In this document: positions 3,159 through 25,073 of the stretch, in pieces
How the letters are laid out: each line of letters begins with the position of its first letter
Numbering within the stretch: the first letter of the stretch is position 1
From: Actinomycetota bacterium
Lineage (GTDB): Bacteria; Actinomycetota; UBA4738; CALAEC01
Assembly (NCBI GenBank): GCA_036396815.1
Contig: DASWKD010000232.1
Location: 1 to 30,227 of the forward strand
DNA length: 30,227 nucleotides
Direction: 5' to 3'
The notes under the pieces: generated by a model
What the model was told of the DNA's origin: nothing
The model's database searches: none
Seen by the model: the letters and a program-made list of their open reading frames with translations, nothing else
Translations under genes and position numbers: made by a program

Positions 3159-3944
3159 CTACAGCGTTCCCCGGATCAGACCGCCGTCCACTTGGTAGGC
3201 CGCCCCGGTGATGTAGGACGCTCGCTCAGAGGACAGGAAGGCGACCAGGTCGGCCAGCTCGCGGGGGTCTCCGAACCGACCGGCCGGGATGGTGGCAGCC
3301 TCCTCGCGCTCCACCTCCTCCACCGGGCGGCCCGAACGCCCGGCCCGGTCGGCCATCAGTTCGGACACGCGGTCGGTGCGGAACCGGCCCGGGAGGACCA
3401 GGTTCACGGTGATGCCCTCGGGAGCCAGCTCCGTGCTCAGGGTCTTGGCCCACCCCGCCACCCCGGACCGGGCGGCACTGGACAGGATCAGGTTGGCGAT
3501 GGGCTGCTTGATGGAGCTGGAGCCGATCACCACCACCCGGCCGTAGCCGGCCCGGCGCATCAGGGGCAGGGCCGCCCGGGTCATCCGCACCGTGGAGAAG
3601 AAGCTCAGCTCGAAGGCCTCCCGGAAGTCCTGGTCGGTCAGCTCCTCGAACCGGCCGAGCCTGGGCCCGCCGGCGTTGGCCACCAGGACCTGGCACCCAC
3701 CCACCGCCTGGGAGCCCTCGGCCACGAACCGCTCGGGCTCGGCGGCCACGTCCACGGCGAGGGCGGCCACCTCCGCGCCGGTGGCCGAGGCGATCTCCTC
3801 ACGGGCCGCCTGGACGGCGTCCGCGCTCCGGGCGGCGATGGCCACCTTCGCGCCCTCCCGGGCCAAGGCCAGCGCGCAGGCCTTGCCCAGGCCCCGGCTG
3901 GCCCCGGCCACCAGCGCCGGTCGCCCCTCCAGCCCCAGTTCCAC
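3159..3944 (-). CDS. SDR family oxidoreductase (FabG-like)
   Basis: ALVAGASRGLG nucleotide-binding motif, LVANAGGP, ITVNLVLPG, GRFGDPRELA...YITG...VDGG. Confidence 0.9.
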   Translation of the reverse strand: MELGLEGRPALVAGASRGLGKACALALAREGAKVAIAARSADAVQAAREEIASATGAEVAALAVDVAAEPERFVAEGSQAVGGCQVLVANAGGPRLGRFEELTDQDFREAFELSFFSTVRMTRAALPLMRRAGYGRVVVIGSSSIKQPIANLILSSAARSGVAGWAKTLSTELAPEGITVNLVLPGRFRTDRVSELMADRAGRSGRPVEEVEREEAATIPAGRFGDPRELADLVAFLSSERASYITGAAYQVDGGLIRGTL

Positions 3945-7006: not shown

Positions 7007-7028
7007 GTTCTGTGCAGTTGCACAAAGG
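7007..7028. promoter_or_regulatory. Palindromic operator-like site, copy 1 (GTTCTGTGCA-GT-TGCACAAAGG)
   Basis: Imperfect copy of the 22-bp palindrome also at 21512 and 23670. Intergenic, 60 nt upstream of a secreted-protein gene. An extra TCACAA lies at 7001-7006. Confidence 0.7.
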
Positions 7029-7088
7029 ATGTGGCCTGGGGGTCGTCGAAGTGGCCAGTGACAGCAGCCGACCCAAGGAGGATGGCCC

Positions 7089-8036
7089 ATGCACAGGAAA
7101 GCACTGCTGGCCACCCTGTTGGCCCTGGCATCGGTGGGCCTGCTTGCTCAGCCCGCCGCCGCCAACAGCGTGTCCTTCACGGACGTAACCCTGTCCGGCA
7201 ACACGGCCACGGTGGAGGGCGCCTACGCCTTCCCCGCGATCGCAACAGCCCAGGACGTGGGTGGCCTCAACACCAACTTCGCCGTCCACGACGTGGCCGT
7301 GGCCGCGGGCGTCGACCTGACCGCCGGCAAGATCATCCCCATCAACGGTGGTCTCCGGTTCGTATGGGAGATCAGCAACATGCCAGCAGAAGTCCCGCCC
7401 GAGGGCGTCCGCTATACCTGGGCCCTCAAGATCGGGAACACGCAGTACCAGCTCCAGGCCAAGCGTACGAACCTTGCGTCCACCACCACGACGGAGGACC
7501 CGGTGGGCCACGTGCAGCAGCTGGCCGCGCAGAAGAACTTCTTCCAGCTCCGCGGAGCGTGCCAGACCAGCTACCAGGGGACCCCTGCTGCCGGCTGCTA
7601 CCACCTGGCCTGGCTGAACGGCTCGTTCGACATCGCCGGGAAGAAGGTGTCGATGGACTGGCCCTACAACACCAAGGACCAGATCGGCAGGCTGGTGGCC
7701 CCGGACTTCGTTCCCGGGGTGGTCCTGGAGGAGGTCCTGGTGGCCAGCAGCTCGATCACCAGTAACTTCCAGGTGGTGGTCAGCAACACCACGACCAGCG
7801 ACTACATCAACGGCTGGGAGCCCTACTTCGCGGGCGGGCGGGTCCAGTTGGGGATCGGCAACCACACGTCCGGCCCCGAGGGCATCAGCTACGGCGCCCC
7901 GGTCACGCTGAACGCCGACGGCACGTTCGACGCCACGCTGAGCGGTCTGTCGGGATCCGCGAACACGATATTCGCGCGGGCCTGCAACGGCACCACGGCG
8001 ACCTGCGCGTACACCTCGCAGCGGGTCATCATCTAG
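7089..8036 (+). CDS. Secreted hypothetical protein (all-beta, unnamed module)
   Basis: SD AAGGAGG, Sec signal peptide MHRKALLATLLALASVGLLAQPAAA, strong GC3 codon bias. By-eye similarity to the C-terminal third of the protein at 21575-23614. Confidence 0.85.
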   Translation: MHRKALLATLLALASVGLLAQPAAANSVSFTDVTLSGNTATVEGAYAFPAIATAQDVGGLNTNFAVHDVAVAAGVDLTAGKIIPINGGLRFVWEISNMPAEVPPEGVRYTWALKIGNTQYQLQAKRTNLASTTTTEDPVGHVQQLAAQKNFFQLRGACQTSYQGTPAAGCYHLAWLNGSFDIAGKKVSMDWPYNTKDQIGRLVAPDFVPGVVLEEVLVASSSITSNFQVVVSNTTTSDYINGWEPYFAGGRVQLGIGNHTSGPEGISYGAPVTLNADGTFDATLSGLSGSANTIFARACNGTTATCAYTSQRVII

Positions 8037-8050
8037 CGACCCGTGACGCT

Positions 8051-8083
8051 GGAAGGGCGGCTCCTCCGGGGGGCCGCCCTTCC
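8051..8083. terminator. GC-rich hairpin between convergent genes
   Basis: 11-bp stem GGAAGGGCGGC / GCCGCCCTTCC enclosing TCCTCCGGGGG. Lies between stops at 8036 (+) and 8085 (-). Confidence 0.65.
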
Positions 8084-8084
8084 C

Positions 8085-8318
8085 TTATCCGCCCTCGCCG
8101 GTCTCCACGTCCGCGCGGTCGTCGGGCTGAGCCTGCTCGGCCCGCTCGGCGTCCACCAGCTGCCACAGCCATTGCCCCCAGGCCCGGATGTCAGGCCACG
8201 CTCGCCAGAAGTCCTCCACCGTGCTCTCCCCCAGGCTCCGCCACGCGTTCGGGGCCTTCTCCTCCTGGGCCATCTGCTCCAGGACCAAGATCGCGTCGTG
8301 GAACCGCTGCTCGTCCAT
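8085..8318 (-). CDS. Small Trp-rich hypothetical protein (77 aa)
   Basis: C-terminal end of ORF 8085..10283. GGAGGTG directly upstream of ATG 8318. Fills the otherwise empty gap and reads like a helical protein (MDEQRFHDAILVLEQMAQEE...). Confidence 0.7.
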   Translation of the reverse strand: MDEQRFHDAILVLEQMAQEEKAPNAWRSLGESTVEDFWRAWPDIRAWGQWLWQLVDAERAEQAQPDDRADVETGEGG

Positions 8319-8378
8319 CGCACCTCCAGGGTCGGTGGCCACAGTGTGCGCGAGGGGAGCGGATCCCCGCAACACGGG

Positions 8379-8390: not shown

Positions 8391-10418
8391 GTGACCAACC
8401 GTCTGGCCGCGGCGACCAGCCCGTACCTCCTCCCGCACGCGGGCAACCCCGTGGACTGGTACGAGTGGGGCTCCGAGGCCCTGGACCGGGCCACGGCCGA
8501 GGACCGGCCCATCCTGCTCTCGGTGGGGTACGCGGCCTGCCACTGGTGCCACGTGATGGAGCGCGAGTCGTTCGAGGACGAAGCGGTTGCCCGGCTGATG
8601 AACGAGGGCTTCGTGTGCATCAAGGTAGACCGGGAGGAGCGGCCGGACGTGGACGCCATCTACATGGACGCCGTCCAGGCCATGACCGGCCACGGCGGGT
8701 GGCCCATGACCGTGTTCCTGACCCCCGACCTCCAGCCGTTCTACGCGGGCACGTACTTCCCTCCCGAGGACCGCCACGGGATGCCGGGGTTCCCCAAGGT
8801 CCTGGAAGCCGTGACCAACGCGTGGGCCAACGAGCGCCACAAGATCCACGAGCAGGGCCGCCGGGTGACCGAGACCATCTCCCGCCGCCTGGCGCCATCG
8901 CCGGAGCCGCTGTCGGAGCGCCTGATCGAGGAGGCCCTGCGGGGCCTCCTGGGCGCCTACGACCGCGCGTGGGGCGGGTTCGGAGGAGCGCCCAAGTTCC
9001 CCCAGGCCATGACGCTGGACTTCCTGCTCCGGGCCCACCTCCGGGGGGAGGACCACGCCCTCCAGATGGCCACCACCACGCTGGCCCGCATGGCCGGGGG
9101 AGGGATCTTCGACCAGGTGGGCGGGGGCTTCCACCGGTACGCCACGGACGAGCGATGGCTGGTCCCCCACTTCGAGAAGATGCTGAACGACAACGCCCTG
9201 CTGGCCCGGACGTACCTCCACGCCTTCCAGGTGACCGGGCGCCGGGAGCTCCGGACGGTGTGCCGAGCCACCCTCGACTACCTCCTGCGGGACCTCCGGC
9301 ACCCCGACGGCGCCTTCTTCTCCGCCGAGGACGCGGACTCCGAGGGCCAGGAGGGCCGCTTCTACGTGTGGTCGTGGGACGACCTGGTGGCCGTGGCCGG
9401 CGAAGAGGCCGCCCGGTGGTTCGGGGCCTCGCCCGAGGGGAACTGGGAGGGCGCGAACATCCTGTGGACGGACGGCGAGCTCCGCGCCGTTCCACGGGAC
9501 GTCGAGGAAGCCCGGGGCACGCTCCTCGAGGCCCGGTCCGGCCGGGTCCGCCCGGCCACCGACGACAAGGTCCTGGCCGCGTGGAACGGCCTGGCCATCC
9601 GAGCCCTGGCCGAGGCCGGCCGGGTCCTGGGGGAGGCCCGGTACGTGGAGGCCGCCGAGCGGGCCGCGTCCTTCGTCCTGGCGGAGCTCCGGGGGCCGGG
9701 CGGCCGCCTCCTCCGGGCCTGGCGCGACGGCCGGACCAGCGGCCCCGGCTACGCCGACGACCACGCGTGCATGGCCGCGGCCTGCCTGACGCTGTACGAG
9801 ACCACCTTCGACCTGCGCTGGTTCCGGGAGGCCCGAGCCCTGGCCGACGACCTGATCCGCCTGTTCGAGGACCCCGAGGACGGGGGGTTCTACCAGACCG
9901 GCTCCGATGCCGAGGCGCTCCTGACCCGGCCCAAGGAGCTGTTCGACAACGCGGTGCCCTCCGGCAATTCGGTGGCCGCCGAGACGCTCCTCCGCTTGGC
10001 CCTGCTGACCGGCGACCCCACCTACGAGCGGAGCGCCGCCGGCGCCCTGCGCGCGGTGGGTGGGGTGCTCCCCCGGGCCCCGACGATGCTGGGGGAGGCG
10101 CTGGGAGCACTCGACCTGTACGTCGGGCCGTCGCGGGAGGTGGCGGTGATCGGCGACCCGAAGGCCGCAGCCCCCCTGGTGGAGCGGGTGTGGGAGGGGT
10201 TCCGACCCAACCTGGTCCTGGCCGCCGCCGCACCGGACGACCGCGGTGCCGCGGAGACCGTGGCCCTCCTGGCCGGCCGGCACGAGGTGGACGGGAAGCC
10301 GGCCGCCTACGTGTGCAGGCGGTTCGCGTGCGAAGCTCCGGTCACCGACCCCGATGCGCTATCGGCCCTCCTCGGCAGGTCCGCCGGCTCGTCGGATCAT
10401 AAACTCGACGGCCGGTGA
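8391..10418 (+). CDS. Thioredoxin domain-containing protein (DUF255/YyaL/SSP411 family)
   Basis: [81 protein letters not shown]. Confidence 0.93.
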
Positions 10419-11777: not shown

Positions 11778-12416
11778 TCAGTGTAGCGCCAGGCCCAGCG
11801 AACGGGAGAGGTCGGACACGGAGCGCTTCGGGTCCTCGTGGACGTATCCCCGCATGCCCAGGGCCTGGGCCGCCTCCACGTTGGGTGGGAAGTCGTCCAC
11901 GAACAGGCAGGCCTCCGGGGGCAGGCTCAGGCGATCCGCGGCCAGCCGGTAGATGTCGGCCAGCGGCTTCCGCAGGCCGACTTGGCCCGAGATGACAACG
12001 GTGTCGAACAGCTCCTCCAGCAGCGATGTGGGGTAGTAGTGCAGGCCCCAGGAGTTCGAGACCAGGGCCGTGCGGACGCCCGCCGCCCGGGCCCGCCGGA
12101 CCAGGTCCACCATCCCTTCCTCGATCCCGATGCCGGCCACCATGCGATCCACCAGCCCCTCATGGGCCACGGGCCGGTCCAGGCCCTCGGACAGGACCTC
12201 GGCCAGACGGCGCTCGAACTCCTCGACCTCCATGCGTCCGGTCTCCACCAGCGACACGAAGTGCTCGGGATCCTGGTCGTGGTACGCGGACTTCAACGCC
12301 TCGCGGAGGCCCGAGGGGTCCACGCCTTCCTCGGCGCAGAAGCGCTCGAAGGCCTCCCCCAGGGGGCCGGTCAGGACGCCGCCGAAGTCGATCAGGAGGC
12401 CCCGGATGTCACCCAC
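11778..12416 (-). CDS. HAD-family hydrolase/phosphatase (ACAD10/epoxide-hydrolase N-terminal-like)
   Basis: Motif I LLIDFGGVL, motif II LVSNSW, motif III LRKP, motif IV FVDDFPPNVEAA. Confidence 0.9.
   Translation of the reverse strand: MGDIRGLLIDFGGVLTGPLGEAFERFCAEEGVDPSGLREALKSAYHDQDPEHFVSLVETGRMEVEEFERRLAEVLSEGLDRPVAHEGLVDRMVAGIGIEEGMVDLVRRARAAGVRTALVSNSWGLHYYPTSLLEELFDTVVISGQVGLRKPLADIYRLAADRLSLPPEACLFVDDFPPNVEAAQALGMRGYVHEDPKRSVSDLSRSLGLALH
11780..11785 (-). promoter_or_regulatory. -10 box TACACT, probable leaderless promoter
   Basis: TACACT 7 nt upstream of ATG 11772, embedded in the end of the upstream HAD gene. Confidence 0.5.
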
Positions 12417-13431
12417 CGCCGGCCACCGCCACGGCCCGGGCGGCCAGGGCGGGCACCGCGGTCTCCATCCGGGCGAAGAAGGGATCGTCGGTGTGACCGG
12501 CCAGGTGCCGGGCGTAGGAGCCCTCCAGGAGGATGGCCAGCTTCCACATGGCCAGCACCCGGAACGGGGTCAGGTCTTGCGCGGCGCGGCCCGTGCGCTC
12601 GCGGTAGCGGTCCAGGAGCTCGGCGCGGGTGGCGAACCCCGGACCGGCGGTGGGCCCGGCCAGACCCAGCTCGTCGTCCGGCTCCCCGGGCTGGTGCCAG
12701 AACGAGAGCATCCACCCGAGGTCGGCCATCGGGTCGCCGACCGTGGACATCTCCCAGTCCAGGATGCCCGCCACCCGGGTGGGATCGGGCGCCAGCATCA
12801 CGTTGTCCAGCTTGTAGTCGCCGTGCACGATGGTAGCCGGGCCCGAGGCCTCGGGCAGGTGCTCGCGGAGCCAGTCGGCGGCGGCCAGGAGGTCGGGCAG
12901 GGGCCTGGTCATGGGGACGGTCAGCTCCAGCTGGCCCCGCCACCGGCGGACCTGCCGGTGGAGGTAGCCGTCGGGCCTGCCCCAGGCCTCCAGGCCGGCC
13001 GCCCACGGGTCCACGGCGTGGAGATCGGCCAGGGCGTCCACCAGCGCCGGCCCGATCGCTGCCGGGTCGAGGCCCGCGGTAACCTCGTCGCGGAGCACGT
13101 GGCCCTCGATCATCTCCATCAGGTGGAACGGCGTGCCGATCACGTCCCGGTCCTGACAGGAGAGCACGGGCCTCGGCGTCGGAACGGGCGTGTCCTTCAG
13201 GGCGTCGAGGACCCGGTGTTCCCGCAGTACGTCGTGGGCCGTCGGGAGGAACGCGCCGGCCGGCGGGCGGCGCAGGACCCACGCATGGCCGGAGCGGCGG
13301 ACGAAGAACGTCTCGTTCGAATGCCCGGCGCGATGCCGCTCCACCTCGAAGGAGCCAGTGCCGGGCAGCCGGTCGTCGAGGTACCGGCCCAGGGCCTCCG
13401 GGTCGAGCAGCCGGGGGGCCGTCTCCGGCAT
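12409..13431 (-). CDS. APH-family phosphotransferase (LvaA / ACAD10-11 kinase-like)
   Basis: 3' part of ORF 12409..13872, start ATG 13431 (TGATG overlap). AGHSNETF, WVLRRPP, AHDVLREHRVL, IVHGDYKLDNVML, ILDWEMSTVGDPMADLGW. Confidence 0.92.
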   Translation of the reverse strand: MPETAPRLLDPEALGRYLDDRLPGTGSFEVERHRAGHSNETFFVRRSGHAWVLRRPPAGAFLPTAHDVLREHRVLDALKDTPVPTPRPVLSCQDRDVIGTPFHLMEMIEGHVLRDEVTAGLDPAAIGPALVDALADLHAVDPWAAGLEAWGRPDGYLHRQVRRWRGQLELTVPMTRPLPDLLAAADWLREHLPEASGPATIVHGDYKLDNVMLAPDPTRVAGILDWEMSTVGDPMADLGWMLSFWHQPGEPDDELGLAGPTAGPGFATRAELLDRYRERTGRAAQDLTPFRVLAMWKLAILLEGSYARHLAGHTDDPFFARMETAVPALAARAVAVAGGG

Positions 13432-21511: not shown

Positions 21512-21533
21512 CCTTTGTGCACATGCACAAAGG
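21512..21533. promoter_or_regulatory. Palindromic operator-like site, copy 2 (CCTTTGTGCA-CA-TGCACAAAGG)
   Basis: Perfect 10-bp arms. Intergenic, 58 nt upstream of the M28 start. Confidence 0.8.
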
Positions 21534-21574: not shown

Positions 21575-23614
21575 TCAGCCGACCGTGACCGCCTCCGACC
21601 GCTCGTGGCAGGCGTCCGCGAAGCAGGCCCGGACCACCGCGGTGTAGTCGCCGGGGGCCAGCCCCTCCACCGCCGCCTGGAACGAGGACAGGTCACCCGA
21701 CAGGCCGGCCGGGGTCGAGGCCACCTCGGTCCCGGAGCCATCGAGGACCGAGATCTGGACCGTGGCCTCGGGCACGGTGAACGTCCCCGAGCCCGTCCCG
21801 GTGTCGGGGCCCACGAACACGGTCCCGGCGGCCGTTCCCGTTTCCACCGCCACCCGCACGTCGACGGCGGTGGGCCGGACGGTACCTCCCGGGGCCAGGC
21901 CCAGCGCGGCCAGGGGCACCCGGGCCACCGCCCGATCCCCTCCCAGGTCGAAGTCCCCGCGGACCCGCTGGCAGGGGGCCCCGGTCCGGCACACCTCGAA
22001 GCGCCTGGGCGTGCCTCGCATGCGCAGGGAGTAGGTGGCCCCTCCCACGTCCAGGGTCCACTCGGCCTCGGCGGGGGACTGCACGGCCTCGAGCATGCCC
22101 TCGATCCCGAGGACGAACACCAGGTCGTCGGAGCGGGCCGTGGTCCGGGCGATGGTGCCCGCACGGATGTCGTAGGACGACGTCCCGTCCTCGTCGTTCA
22201 CCACGGTGACGGGGGCAGCCCGGCCGAAGGTGGCCGCGCCCGACACGTCCACCGAACCGATGCCTCCGGCGACCGTCAGATCGTCGATCGAGGTCTGGTC
22301 CGTGGCGTGGGTGATGATCCGAGGCCCGCCCGCCTGGACCACCCAGTCGGTGCACATGTTCTTGTACGCTGCGGCCCCTCCGTGCGCGCTCAGGTTGCCA
22401 TTGCACCCGGGCAGATGGTCCTCCACGAACGAGATGTGGAACCGGCCATCCGGGCCCACCGCGATCTGCTGGTAGTCCCACAGCGTCCGGCCCAAGGATC
22501 CACGGTGGATCACCCGGTCCAGCGTCCCGTGGGTGATCACCGGCGCGTCCGAAGCCGCCCCGGTGATGACCGCGGCCTTGACCCTCCACTCGGACGTGGC
22601 AGGCACCGAGTTCTGATGGGCCTTCGAGGGGTTGTGGTACCAGGTCAGAGCCACCCGCCCGTCGTCTCCGGCGGCCACCCAGGGGAACGTGGAGCACCCC
22701 TCGTCCTGATTCACCCGGTACTGCTGCCATGTGGCGCCCTTGTCGGAGGAGACCGTCAGGTACACGTCGCACCCGCTGCCGTTGATGTCGGCCCACGTGC
22801 CGTACACGTTCCCGGCCCGGTCCACGTCCACGCTGACCATGAACGGGGCGATCCCGTTGCGAGGGGACGTCGCCGCGGGGGCCTCGGACCACGTCTCCCC
22901 CGCGTCGTGCGAGGACACCGTGCACAGCGAGCTGGACCCGGGGGCGCACCGGCCGAAGAAGTACACGTCGTCGGTCCGGCGGTCGGCGGCCACGTTGCCC
23001 GGGAAGAACCGCTGGCCGGCGCCGATCGTGTTGTAGGCGTCCATCCAGGTGTGGCCGCCGTCGGTGGACTTCCAGATCTGGGTGTGGGTCACGTGGTTGA
23101 CGTACAGGTAGATGGCCCCGTTCGAGTACGAGAGCCAGGGCCGGTCGTCGACACCCGGGAGCACCGTCACCGTCTCATCGGTGTACTCCCACACGTCGCC
23201 GCGTCCGCTCCACTTGGTCAGGAAGATGCTGGGCACCCAGGTGTCGGAGAAGTACACGGAGCCGGCGTCGTCGATCACGAAGTCGCCCTCGGCCCCGAAG
23301 CCCCACTCGCGGGCCTTGCCCGGCGAGGGGAGGTCGGTCCACGTGGCGCCATCGTCCTTGGAGTACCAGGCGGGGGCGGCCCGGGCCACGCAGCACACCC
23401 CGGCCACGTAGATCGTCCCGGCCTCGTCCACCTTGATGCTGGGCTCCCCCGGCCCGCCCACCTGGGCCGGGTCGGTGAACGGCATCCGGACCGGGGCCCC
23501 GAAGGAGATCCCCTCCTCGTGCACGGGCTCGGGGGCCCCAGCCCCCTGGGAGGGCCCGGGGACCACGATCCCCGCAGCCACGACCGCCGTCACCAGCACC
23601 AGCTTCGCTCTCAT
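21575..23614 (-). CDS. Secreted Asp-box (BNR)/sialidase-like beta-propeller protein with unnamed C-terminal module
   Basis: Start ATG 23614 (SD AAGGAG), signal peptide. Four Asp-boxes: YSKDDGATW, KSTDGGHTW, SSHDAGETW, SSDKGATW. GEPSIKVD and DRPWL are typical of this propeller family. Confidence 0.85.
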   Translation of the reverse strand: MRAKLVLVTAVVAAGIVVPGPSQGAGAPEPVHEEGISFGAPVRMPFTDPAQVGGPGEPSIKVDEAGTIYVAGVCCVARAAPAWYSKDDGATWTDLPSPGKAREWGFGAEGDFVIDDAGSVYFSDTWVPSIFLTKWSGRGDVWEYTDETVTVLPGVDDRPWLSYSNGAIYLYVNHVTHTQIWKSTDGGHTWMDAYNTIGAGQRFFPGNVAADRRTDDVYFFGRCAPGSSSLCTVSSHDAGETWSEAPAATSPRNGIAPFMVSVDVDRAGNVYGTWADINGSGCDVYLTVSSDKGATWQQYRVNQDEGCSTFPWVAAGDDGRVALTWYHNPSKAHQNSVPATSEWRVKAAVITGAASDAPVITHGTLDRVIHRGSLGRTLWDYQQIAVGPDGRFHISFVEDHLPGCNGNLSAHGGAAAYKNMCTDWVVQAGGPRIITHATDQTSIDDLTVAGGIGSVDVSGAATFGRAAPVTVVNDEDGTSSYDIRAGTIARTTARSDDLVFVLGIEGMLEAVQSPAEAEWTLDVGGATYSLRMRGTPRRFEVCRTGAPCQRVRGDFDLGGDRAVARVPLAALGLAPGGTVRPTAVDVRVAVETGTAAGTVFVGPDTGTGSGTFTVPEATVQISVLDGSGTEVASTPAGLSGDLSSFQAAVEGLAPGDYTAVVRACFADACHERSEAVTVG

Positions 23615-23669: not shown

Positions 23670-23691
23670 CCTTTGGGCATCTGCACAAAGG
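23670..23691. promoter_or_regulatory. Palindromic operator-like site, copy 3 (CCTTTGGGCA-TC-TGCACAAAGG)
   Basis: One mismatch from perfect. Sits between the divergent Asp-box (55 nt away) and LVIVD (74 nt away) genes. Confidence 0.78.
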
Positions 23692-23765: not shown

Positions 23766-25073
23766 ATGAAGCTGAGGATGCGTCTCGTGGCCCTGGCGGC
23801 CCTGCTCACCACCGTGCTGGCCACCGGAGGGTTCAGCCCCGCCCGGAACCTGGCCCCGGGCGACCCGTCCATGCTGAACCTGGCCCACGTCTACACCTTC
23901 GACACGGGAGGCGGGCCGACGGATCCCACGGGCAAGGGGACCGACGTCGAGTTCTACACGTCGACGGTGCCCCTGCGCGACTACACGACCGGCGAGCTGA
24001 TCCTCGACGAGGAGGGCAACCAGATCCTGGTCGACAAGGACTTCGCCATCATGGGCTCCTACGGCGGCGGCGGCTGGGTGTTCGACATCACCGACCCGGA
24101 GAACGTGCAGTTCGTGCGGAACATCCCCTGCAACCAGACCCAGAACGACGTCCAGCTCAAGAAGTTCGAGGAGCGGTGGATCCTGGCCCTTGCCCGTGAC
24201 GGAGGCAGCAACCCGTGCAACACCGGGGTGCCCAACAAGGGGAGCGGCGGAGCGGGCATCGCCGTGTTCGACGTAACGGACCCCTACGCGTTCACGCGGA
24301 TATACAACTTCCGGAACACGGGGGGCGCTCACAACTTCACGTTCCACCCGACCAAGCCGTACGGCTGGGTGTCCACCGGGGACCTTCCGGGAGCGCTGAA
24401 CCACATCCCGATCATCAACTTCACGGACGTGGACAACCCCACCCTGGCCGCGGACATCCAGGTCGAGGGGGGTCCTCACGACATCTCGTTCAGCGCAGAC
24501 GGGCTCCGGGCCTACGTGGCCTCGGAGAACAACGCGAGGATCTACGACGTGTCGAACCCGGCTGCTCCCGTCCTGATCTCGCGGACCCCCAACGCGGGCA
24601 CGTACTCGCACGGGTTCGATCCCACGCCCGACCGGTCCATGGCCGTGGTGACCAACGAGAGCCTGGCCCTGGGCGGGTTCTTCGCCGGCGGATCAACCGT
24701 CTGTCCGGGCGAGGGCCTGACCTTCTTCGACATCGAGGGCTCGAACGAGGCCACACCCATCCCCGTGGGCGAGTACCTGCCCACCGGCTTCGCCGGGCGG
24801 GCACCCGACAACAGGGCCTGCACGGGGCACGTGGGGCGCATCGCGCCCAACAGCCACGTGCTCTCCACGGGCTGGTACATCGGCGGCGTGCGGGTCGTGG
24901 ACTTCGCCAACCCGAGTCTCCCCACGGAGGTCGCGCACGCTGTCATGCCCGGGACCGAGGTGTGGGCGGCCAAGATGTACAAGGGCCCCTACATCTACTC
25001 GGCCGACATGCGGCGTGGATTCGACGTCTACAAGTGGAGCGGGACCGGCACCGCCCCCTGGGTGGCGCCGTAA
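23766..25073 (+). CDS. Secreted LVIVD-repeat beta-propeller protein
   Basis: SD GAGGAGG, signal peptide. Repeated blades GWVFDITDPEN, IAVFDVTDP, IINFTDVDNP, RIYDVSNPAAP, FFDIEG, VRVVDFANPSLP. Recurring His (HNFT, HDIS, YSHG, TGHV). Confidence 0.87.
   Translation: MKLRMRLVALAALLTTVLATGGFSPARNLAPGDPSMLNLAHVYTFDTGGGPTDPTGKGTDVEFYTSTVPLRDYTTGELILDEEGNQILVDKDFAIMGSYGGGGWVFDITDPENVQFVRNIPCNQTQNDVQLKKFEERWILALARDGGSNPCNTGVPNKGSGGAGIAVFDVTDPYAFTRIYNFRNTGGAHNFTFHPTKPYGWVSTGDLPGALNHIPIINFTDVDNPTLAADIQVEGGPHDISFSADGLRAYVASENNARIYDVSNPAAPVLISRTPNAGTYSHGFDPTPDRSMAVVTNESLALGGFFAGGSTVCPGEGLTFFDIEGSNEATPIPVGEYLPTGFAGRAPDNRACTGHVGRIAPNSHVLSTGWYIGGVRVVDFANPSLPTEVAHAVMPGTEVWAAKMYKGPYIYSADMRRGFDVYKWSGTGTAPWVAP

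Follow-up and report, generated by a model that had tools for sequence, protein, structure and literature searches.

The question raised by this locus is whether a small secreted protein and the tail of a longer one are copies of the same module and, if so, what that module does. Both are encoded in the window, by which we mean the whole stretch of DNA analysed (30,227 nucleotides, G+C ~70%). The stand-alone protein, P0001 (7089–8036, plus strand, stop codon included; 315 aa), opens with a Sec signal peptide (7089–7163, residues 1–25) that ends in an alanine run just ahead of NSVSF, and GGAGG can be read in the sequence 7 nt 5' of its ATG. The longer protein, P0122 (21575–23614, minus strand, stop codon included; 679 aa), is a secreted Asp-box protein of the BNR/sortilin-like kind. 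Its start was placed at 23614, where the start codon lies behind a ribosome-binding site; a longer reading from 23872 was rejected, as it would translate the promoter region. The N-terminal ~430 aa of P0122 give weak BNR and Sortilin-Vps10 matches in Pfam, and no Pfam family matches either its last ~250 residues or the whole 315-residue P0001.

By BLASTP, residues 24–127 of P0001 align marginally (E 0.042) with residues 523–621 of the longer Asp-box reading, and a second piece, collinear with the first, scores E 0.2. A profile built from 73 aligned P0001 relatives (alignment A1) finds the Asp-box protein with an E value of 2.2e-6 and its 78%-identical relative with 4.6e-9 (hmmsearch), the matching pieces again being collinear (profile positions 22–126 and 271–308). 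When A1 was compared with an alignment of the tail only (A2), hhalign returned a significant profile–profile match, with a probability of 98.3% and E 2e-14 over 224 columns (29–321 versus 8–237). Each part also scores on its own: 95.1% and 3e-8 for the central insert described below, 90.9% and 1e-6 for the N-terminal hairpin, and 95.4% and 2e-8 for the C-terminal part. With the tail alignment reversed as a control, the score falls to 2.6%. An exhaustive phmmer search of 1.8 billion representatives with the tail gave 17 matches, among them four full-length Asp-box homologues, several free proteins of 278–323 residues in which nearly the whole tail is covered, and proteins carrying the signature motifs of the P0001 family. 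Word-indexed searching with the tail recovered itself and one 78% relative only. When longer, fused members of the P0001 family were sought by the same method, none came up, which is weak evidence as long proteins crowd out relatives there; the fused forms described below came from searching genomes.

These data establish homology between P0001 and the C-terminal ~245 residues of the Asp-box protein: the two are copies of a single extracellular module that lacks annotation. The first-pass annotation had proposed this resemblance from six blocks aligned by hand, all of which reappear in the hhalign alignment, and had put the tail at about 21575–22300, in agreement with the module as mapped here (21578–22309, minus strand, residues ~436–679). 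A broader profile, A3 (24 sequences), matches the same tail at 21581–22309 of contig C232 in a search of the genome from which the window comes.

The earlier statement that no named domain could be recognized is confirmed by Pfam, NCBIfam and PDB sequence searches. In a Pfam scan of P0001 and P0122 at E 1, the module attracts chance-level Ig matches only (Gmad2, E 0.079), and a scan of 24 module sequences at E 5 yields nothing beyond weak Ig-type rows (again best to Gmad2, E 0.013). NCBIfam/TIGRFAM models, those for sorting domains included, match none of five module proteins at E 0.1, and a profile search of PDB sequences gives chance rows only. The Pfam model for Glucodextran_C matches neither P0001 and P0122 at E 1 nor any of the 24 members at E 5, and PF09985, the same family, has 0 matches at E 0.1 over 31 genomes with more than 100 module copies. 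Pfam scans of module proteins likewise contain no match to CBM9_1, to the EB_dh or DOMON models, or to SLH or other named wall-binding repeats.

What sequence families miss, structural models make visible. AlphaFold2 gave models with pLDDT of 90.6 for P0001 (with A1) and 90.7 for the tail (with A3), and pTM of 0.86 for each. As modelled, the module is an Fn3/Ig-like sandwich split by a nested sandwich of the DOMON/CBM9/Glucodextran_C-like type: the first two strands come first in the sequence, then the insert, then the last four or five strands. The outer sandwich has the seven-stranded Greek-key form of Fn3/Ig-like E-set domains, and the insert has a DOMON/CBM9-type β-sandwich fold. In P0001, the N-terminal β-hairpin (7164–7229, residues ~26–47; strands 27–36 and 39–47 in the model) provides the first two Fn3/Ig-like strands, the inserted sandwich follows (7236–7823, residues ~50–245), and the remaining Fn3/Ig-like strands close the protein (7824–8033, residues ~246–315), all on the plus strand. 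The signal peptide is helical and of low pLDDT. The corresponding elements of P0122, on the minus strand, are the hairpin at 22229–22291 (residues ~442–462), the insert at 21773–22219 (residues ~466–614), which is a shorter version of that in P0001, and the C-terminal strands at 21578–21772 (residues ~615–679).

To compare the models with known structures, we aligned them exhaustively to PDB representatives; likeness between the two was judged by their common top matches. For both parts of the module, the PDB matches are the same set for the P0001 and tail models. Fn3 matches to P0001 span residues 24 to 315 with ~85 residues aligned. The two best AlphaFold DB clusters, uncharacterised proteins of ~300 residues, are also common to both models. 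Protein-atlas clusters carrying PF09985 match the insert, and a feature search of the protein atlas returned one unnamed cluster (score 0.76). Foldseek against the PDB gave generic two-Ig matches only (antibody fragments, E above 0.001). The models and PDB matches bear out the split Ig-like sandwich with an inserted DOMON/CBM9-like domain that had been proposed from the letters, and in homology and nested architecture, taken by themselves, our confidence is very high.

Two pairs of cysteines are invariant in P0001, Cys158 and Cys170 in the insert and Cys299 and Cys306 in the C-terminal strands; the two terminal cysteines are invariant in both the P0001-family and the Asp-box-tail alignments. 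Judged from this conservation, the pairs probably form one disulfide per domain. The terminal disulfide suggested by the first-pass annotation is supported to the extent that both of its cysteines never vary.

Several known systems resemble parts of this arrangement. The insert has a fold like that of domain C of Arthrobacter glucodextranase (PDB 1ULV, ~773–1019), a Glucodextran_C/CBM9/DOMON-like domain. Its family, a CBM9-like member of the DOMON-like superfamily, has been linked to the recognition of glucans (PMC10074034). Unlike Glucodextran_C, the domain considered here is nested inside an Ig-like sandwich, has its own cysteine pair, lacks a sequence-level match to that family, and occurs in 4–28 copies per genome on non-glycosidase partners. 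A DOMON-like fold is also seen in the haem-b subunits of molybdoenzymes, namely ethylbenzene dehydrogenase gamma (2IVF chain C) and NxrC (7B04 chain C); identity to these is 6–11%, however, and the module is a secreted accessory with no family-wide pair of haem ligands. Like Fn3, PKD and pre-peptidase C-terminal (PPC) domains, the module places an Ig-like (E-set) fold at the ends of secreted bacterial enzymes, but its sandwich is interrupted after the second strand by a domain of 150–200 residues, it has a conserved C-x4-6-C pair at the very end, and no Fn3, PKD or PPC model matches it. SLH, CWB2, LysM, GW and type IX C-terminal domains (CTDs) serve as a working analogy only: there too, one module type is found on many unrelated exported proteins, in many copies per genome and with a lineage-restricted, all-or-many spread, yet there is no sequence or specific fold relation and the modules studied here are acidic, not basic.

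If the module is a portable unit, its partners and copy number should be informative. In the source genome (1.65 Mb, 73% complete), a six-frame search with the P0001 profile detects 14 ORFs below E 1e-6, and the broader A3 profile gives 16 module matches. About one-third of the modules in this genome are free copies; the rest of the picture is one of fusion to BNR, cupredoxin, LVIVD-like, DUF2891 and PA proteins. Modules with a P0001-like, full insert are represented by the free P0001 and by C-terminal fusions to BNR propellers, to a cupredoxin and to an LVIVD-like propeller, and those with a short insert, as in the Asp-box tail, include four free proteins of ~300 residues and a DUF2891 fusion. 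In the A3 alignment the two types form a continuum. Relatives add Kelch+PKD proteins, PD40 propellers, a second cupredoxin and several unknown domains to the partners, so that the module is used both free and fused, as first claimed, in the source genome and beyond it. Cupredoxin–module fusions are found in two genomes, and in nearly all fused forms the module sits at the extreme C-terminus.

The distribution is patchy. Among 31 related genomes, six contain 4, 8, 12, 16, 24 and 28 module matches, three more contain 1–2, and 21 contain none, several of the latter being over 92% complete. In a class-wide sample, 8 of the 201 genomes carry the module. At least 161 relatives of P0001, all hypothetical proteins of ~300–330 residues from Actinomycetota MAGs, are present in metagenomes, and more distant free-form homologues come from MAGs labelled Euzebya, Egibacteraceae and Nitriliruptoria. 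The module is an unannotated family assembled from two known folds, one nested in the other, and is expanded in a few uncultured actinobacterial genera. Two local clusters were seen along the way. On contig C119 of G030, a genome from a different family, the stretch 54000–72000 contains four module-bearing genes within ~14 kb, one of them a cupredoxin fusion and another with a near-N-terminal module followed by ~450 more residues. On contig C162 of the source genome (2998–4817), two adjacent module genes, a cupredoxin–module fusion and a gene cut by the contig end, each stand behind their own copy of the palindrome described next.

The first-pass annotation had drawn attention to a palindrome common to the two genes of the window. 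Copies are present at both: one, read directly, at 7007–7028 upstream of the P0001 gene, with a TCGAA box (7046–7050, plus strand) 36 nt from the start of the palindrome core as a putative –10-like element, and another at 23670–23691 with a GCGAA box at the fixed offset toward the Asp-box gene. A third (21512–21533) lies between the Asp-box stop codon and the gene for an M28/PKD peptidase (start 21453, minus strand); no strand is assigned to any of the three palindromes. The specific link between the two genes did not survive, since the motif is genome-wide (~57–62 sites): with up to 2 mismatches to the 16-nt core, we counted 62 sites in the source genome versus 4 in a reversed-sequence control. 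Being common to ~60 other sites, the palindrome does not tie the P0001 and Asp-box genes to one another. It precedes at least 8 module genes and also many genes that lack the module.

A (G/T)CGAA-type box accompanies 36 of the 62 sites, always at the same distance and on just one side. The palindrome and the start codon are ~70–80 nt apart, and ~33 of the 44 downstream ORFs have, by eye, a signal-peptide-like start. The palindrome is centred near –41 relative to the box, a geometry from which we infer a resemblance to activator-dependent promoters. Across the 31 relatives, exactly seven genomes, the module-expanded ones, have 24–57 palindrome sites and the other 24 have 0–1; these seven are kin, and hence their co-distribution is not an independent statistical test. 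One palindrome-driven gene of the source genome (contig C294, ~3570–3670) begins with a signal of the twin-arginine (Tat) type, RRDLIRR, in place of a Sec signal.

Downstream of P0001, a GC-rich hairpin with an 11-bp stem (8051–8083, plus strand, read by eye) follows the stop codon and is a probable terminator, which would make the P0001 gene monocistronic. A scan for consensus promoters and terminators around the gene, which requires a T-run, found nothing, this hairpin included. Between the hairpin and a DUF255 gene, a small ORF of ~77 codons can be discerned by eye on the minus strand (8088–8320). When a conserved neighbourhood of the P0001 gene was sought, the downstream DUF255 gene proved to be kept in the closest relative only; in L018, a DUF255/thioredoxin-like gene follows with 73% identity to that at 8391–10418 of the window.

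What does the module do? Any function assigned here is proposed from fold analogy and architecture. By that analogy, the module probably binds a sugar polymer or holds proteins at the cell surface. An accessory role is indicated by the mutually unrelated nature of its partners (BNR, cupredoxin, LVIVD-like, DUF2891, PA, Kelch+PKD and PD40), by its terminal position in nearly all fused forms, and by its being optional on LVIVD-like propellers. The last point can be seen in the window itself, where an LVIVD propeller without the module (23766–25073, plus strand) adjoins the Asp-box gene; in module-bearing homologues of this propeller (P0136; contig C237), the module begins where the window's protein stops. 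Thus the module is an optional appendage. A generic rather than substrate-specific role is suggested by its presence on a copper electron carrier, which has no polysaccharide substrate, and by the all-or-many counts (16 in the source genome, 4–28 in six relatives, none in 21 of 31). Such a genome pattern is typical of anchoring or sorting tags.

The reading we favour, tentatively and with a probability that falls somewhat short of even, is that the nested module is a non-catalytic accessory that functions in surface retention. Sec would export it, either as a protein in its own right or as the final domain of many unrelated secreted proteins; the inserted sandwich would bind a glycan, most likely an envelope polymer of the cell itself; the bound module would keep attached enzymes and redox proteins at the cell surface; and the Ig-like part would serve as a rigid stalk and connector. 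Glycan binding is suggested by the likeness of the insert to Glucodextran_C, given the role proposed for that family. With a pI of ~4–5 (the proteome median is roughly ~5.8), the modules are acidic, whereas many wall-binding modules are basic; this counts against a simple electrostatic attraction to anionic polymers of the wall. Covalent anchoring is not replaced by the module, since sortase is encoded in 29 of the 31 genomes, carriers and non-carriers alike, and no complementary distribution of module and sortase that would favour anchoring was found among them. One point against anchoring is the existence of free copies, which have no cargo.

In a bolder version, which we regard as doubtful, the module and the palindromic promoter belong together as the two components of a surface-display system peculiar to the lineage. 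One regulator would turn on most of the secretome, much of which the module would dock onto an envelope polymer or protein layer that is likewise lineage-specific. Such non-covalent addressing in actinobacteria would work in the manner of SLH or type IX CTDs, but by means of a nested Ig/DOMON-like pair.

Of the other explanations, ranked by likelihood, the foremost is that the module is a substrate-targeting carbohydrate-binding module (CBM), although we consider this unlikely. The insert, like CBM9, would bind a polysaccharide or glycoprotein from the environment and bring hydrolases to insoluble substrates, with free copies acting as binders or sensors. The resemblance of the insert to the CBM9-like Glucodextran_C fold, implicated in glucan recognition (PMC10074034), is as expected on this account, as are the many partners that are propellers of glycosidase- or sialidase-like families and the nearby genes of the window for secreted peptidases and propellers. 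Cupredoxin, PD40 and Kelch partners, however, are not obvious polysaccharide enzymes, no CBM family model matches, and the occurrence of one module type on many unrelated proteins with all-or-many counts is better explained by a generic address.

Surface retention also has to be weighed against a structural role, in which a lattice or scaffold on the cell would be built from free copies and joined by fused copies through module–module contacts. Ig-like and Glucodextran-type domains do occur in S-layer proteins. About a third of the copies in the source genome are free, and free P0001-type genes are tandemly duplicated in two related MAGs (L018, 5–1900; L020, 2113–3942). The free copies are diverse paralogues, however, and not one dominant, highly conserved lattice protein. 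We consider a surface-layer element improbable.

Still less probable is an aid to export, folding or stability that is removed after secretion, as with pre-peptidase C-terminal domains or the C-terminal sorting domains of other phyla. This possibility would account for the extreme C-terminal position, the Ig-like fold, the many copies per genome and the patchy distribution, and the AlphaFold DB search contains weak structural rows to type IX sorting domains (ranks 17–18). But free copies, which bear a signal peptide themselves, would have no cargo to escort; a Sec or Tat signal is already found on every copy; at ~250 residues and with a ligand-type domain nested in it, the module is large for a signal; and no NCBIfam sorting-domain model matches. 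Least probable of all is a haem-b-binding, DOMON-type cytochrome domain for extracellular electron transfer, in the manner of ethylbenzene dehydrogenase gamma and NxrC, which gains from the presence of 2ivf_C and 7b04_C among the top structural matches, from the cupredoxin fusions, and from the invariant Lys125 and near-invariant His141 and His172 of the P0001 subfamily. Against it stand the lack of conservation of these three residues in the Asp-box-tail subfamily, partners that are mostly not redox proteins, and the absence of any EB_dh or DOMON model match.

Irrespective of function, a domain family named in no database, with a clear nested architecture, is now defined, and it accounts for the C-terminal 'unknown' regions of dozens of secreted proteins from several uncultured actinobacterial genera of soil and saline settings. 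Should it prove to be a surface address, the module would represent a new Gram-positive means of keeping enzymes on the cell and a possible display tag. The strict co-distribution with a secretome-wide palindromic promoter offers a compact, testable picture of how extracellular proteins are organized. The gain is a well-supported new domain family together with a surface-addressing hypothesis that can be tested, rather than the demonstration of a new mechanism.

Further evidence for the fold comes from an unsplit counterpart of the Ig-like domain in the source genome (contig C325, ~12340–12670), which has no insert: its hairpin leads straight into the C-terminal strands and the cysteine pair. 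It lies at the start of a secreted protein of ~520 residues that contains a subtilase-like GTSxAxP motif.
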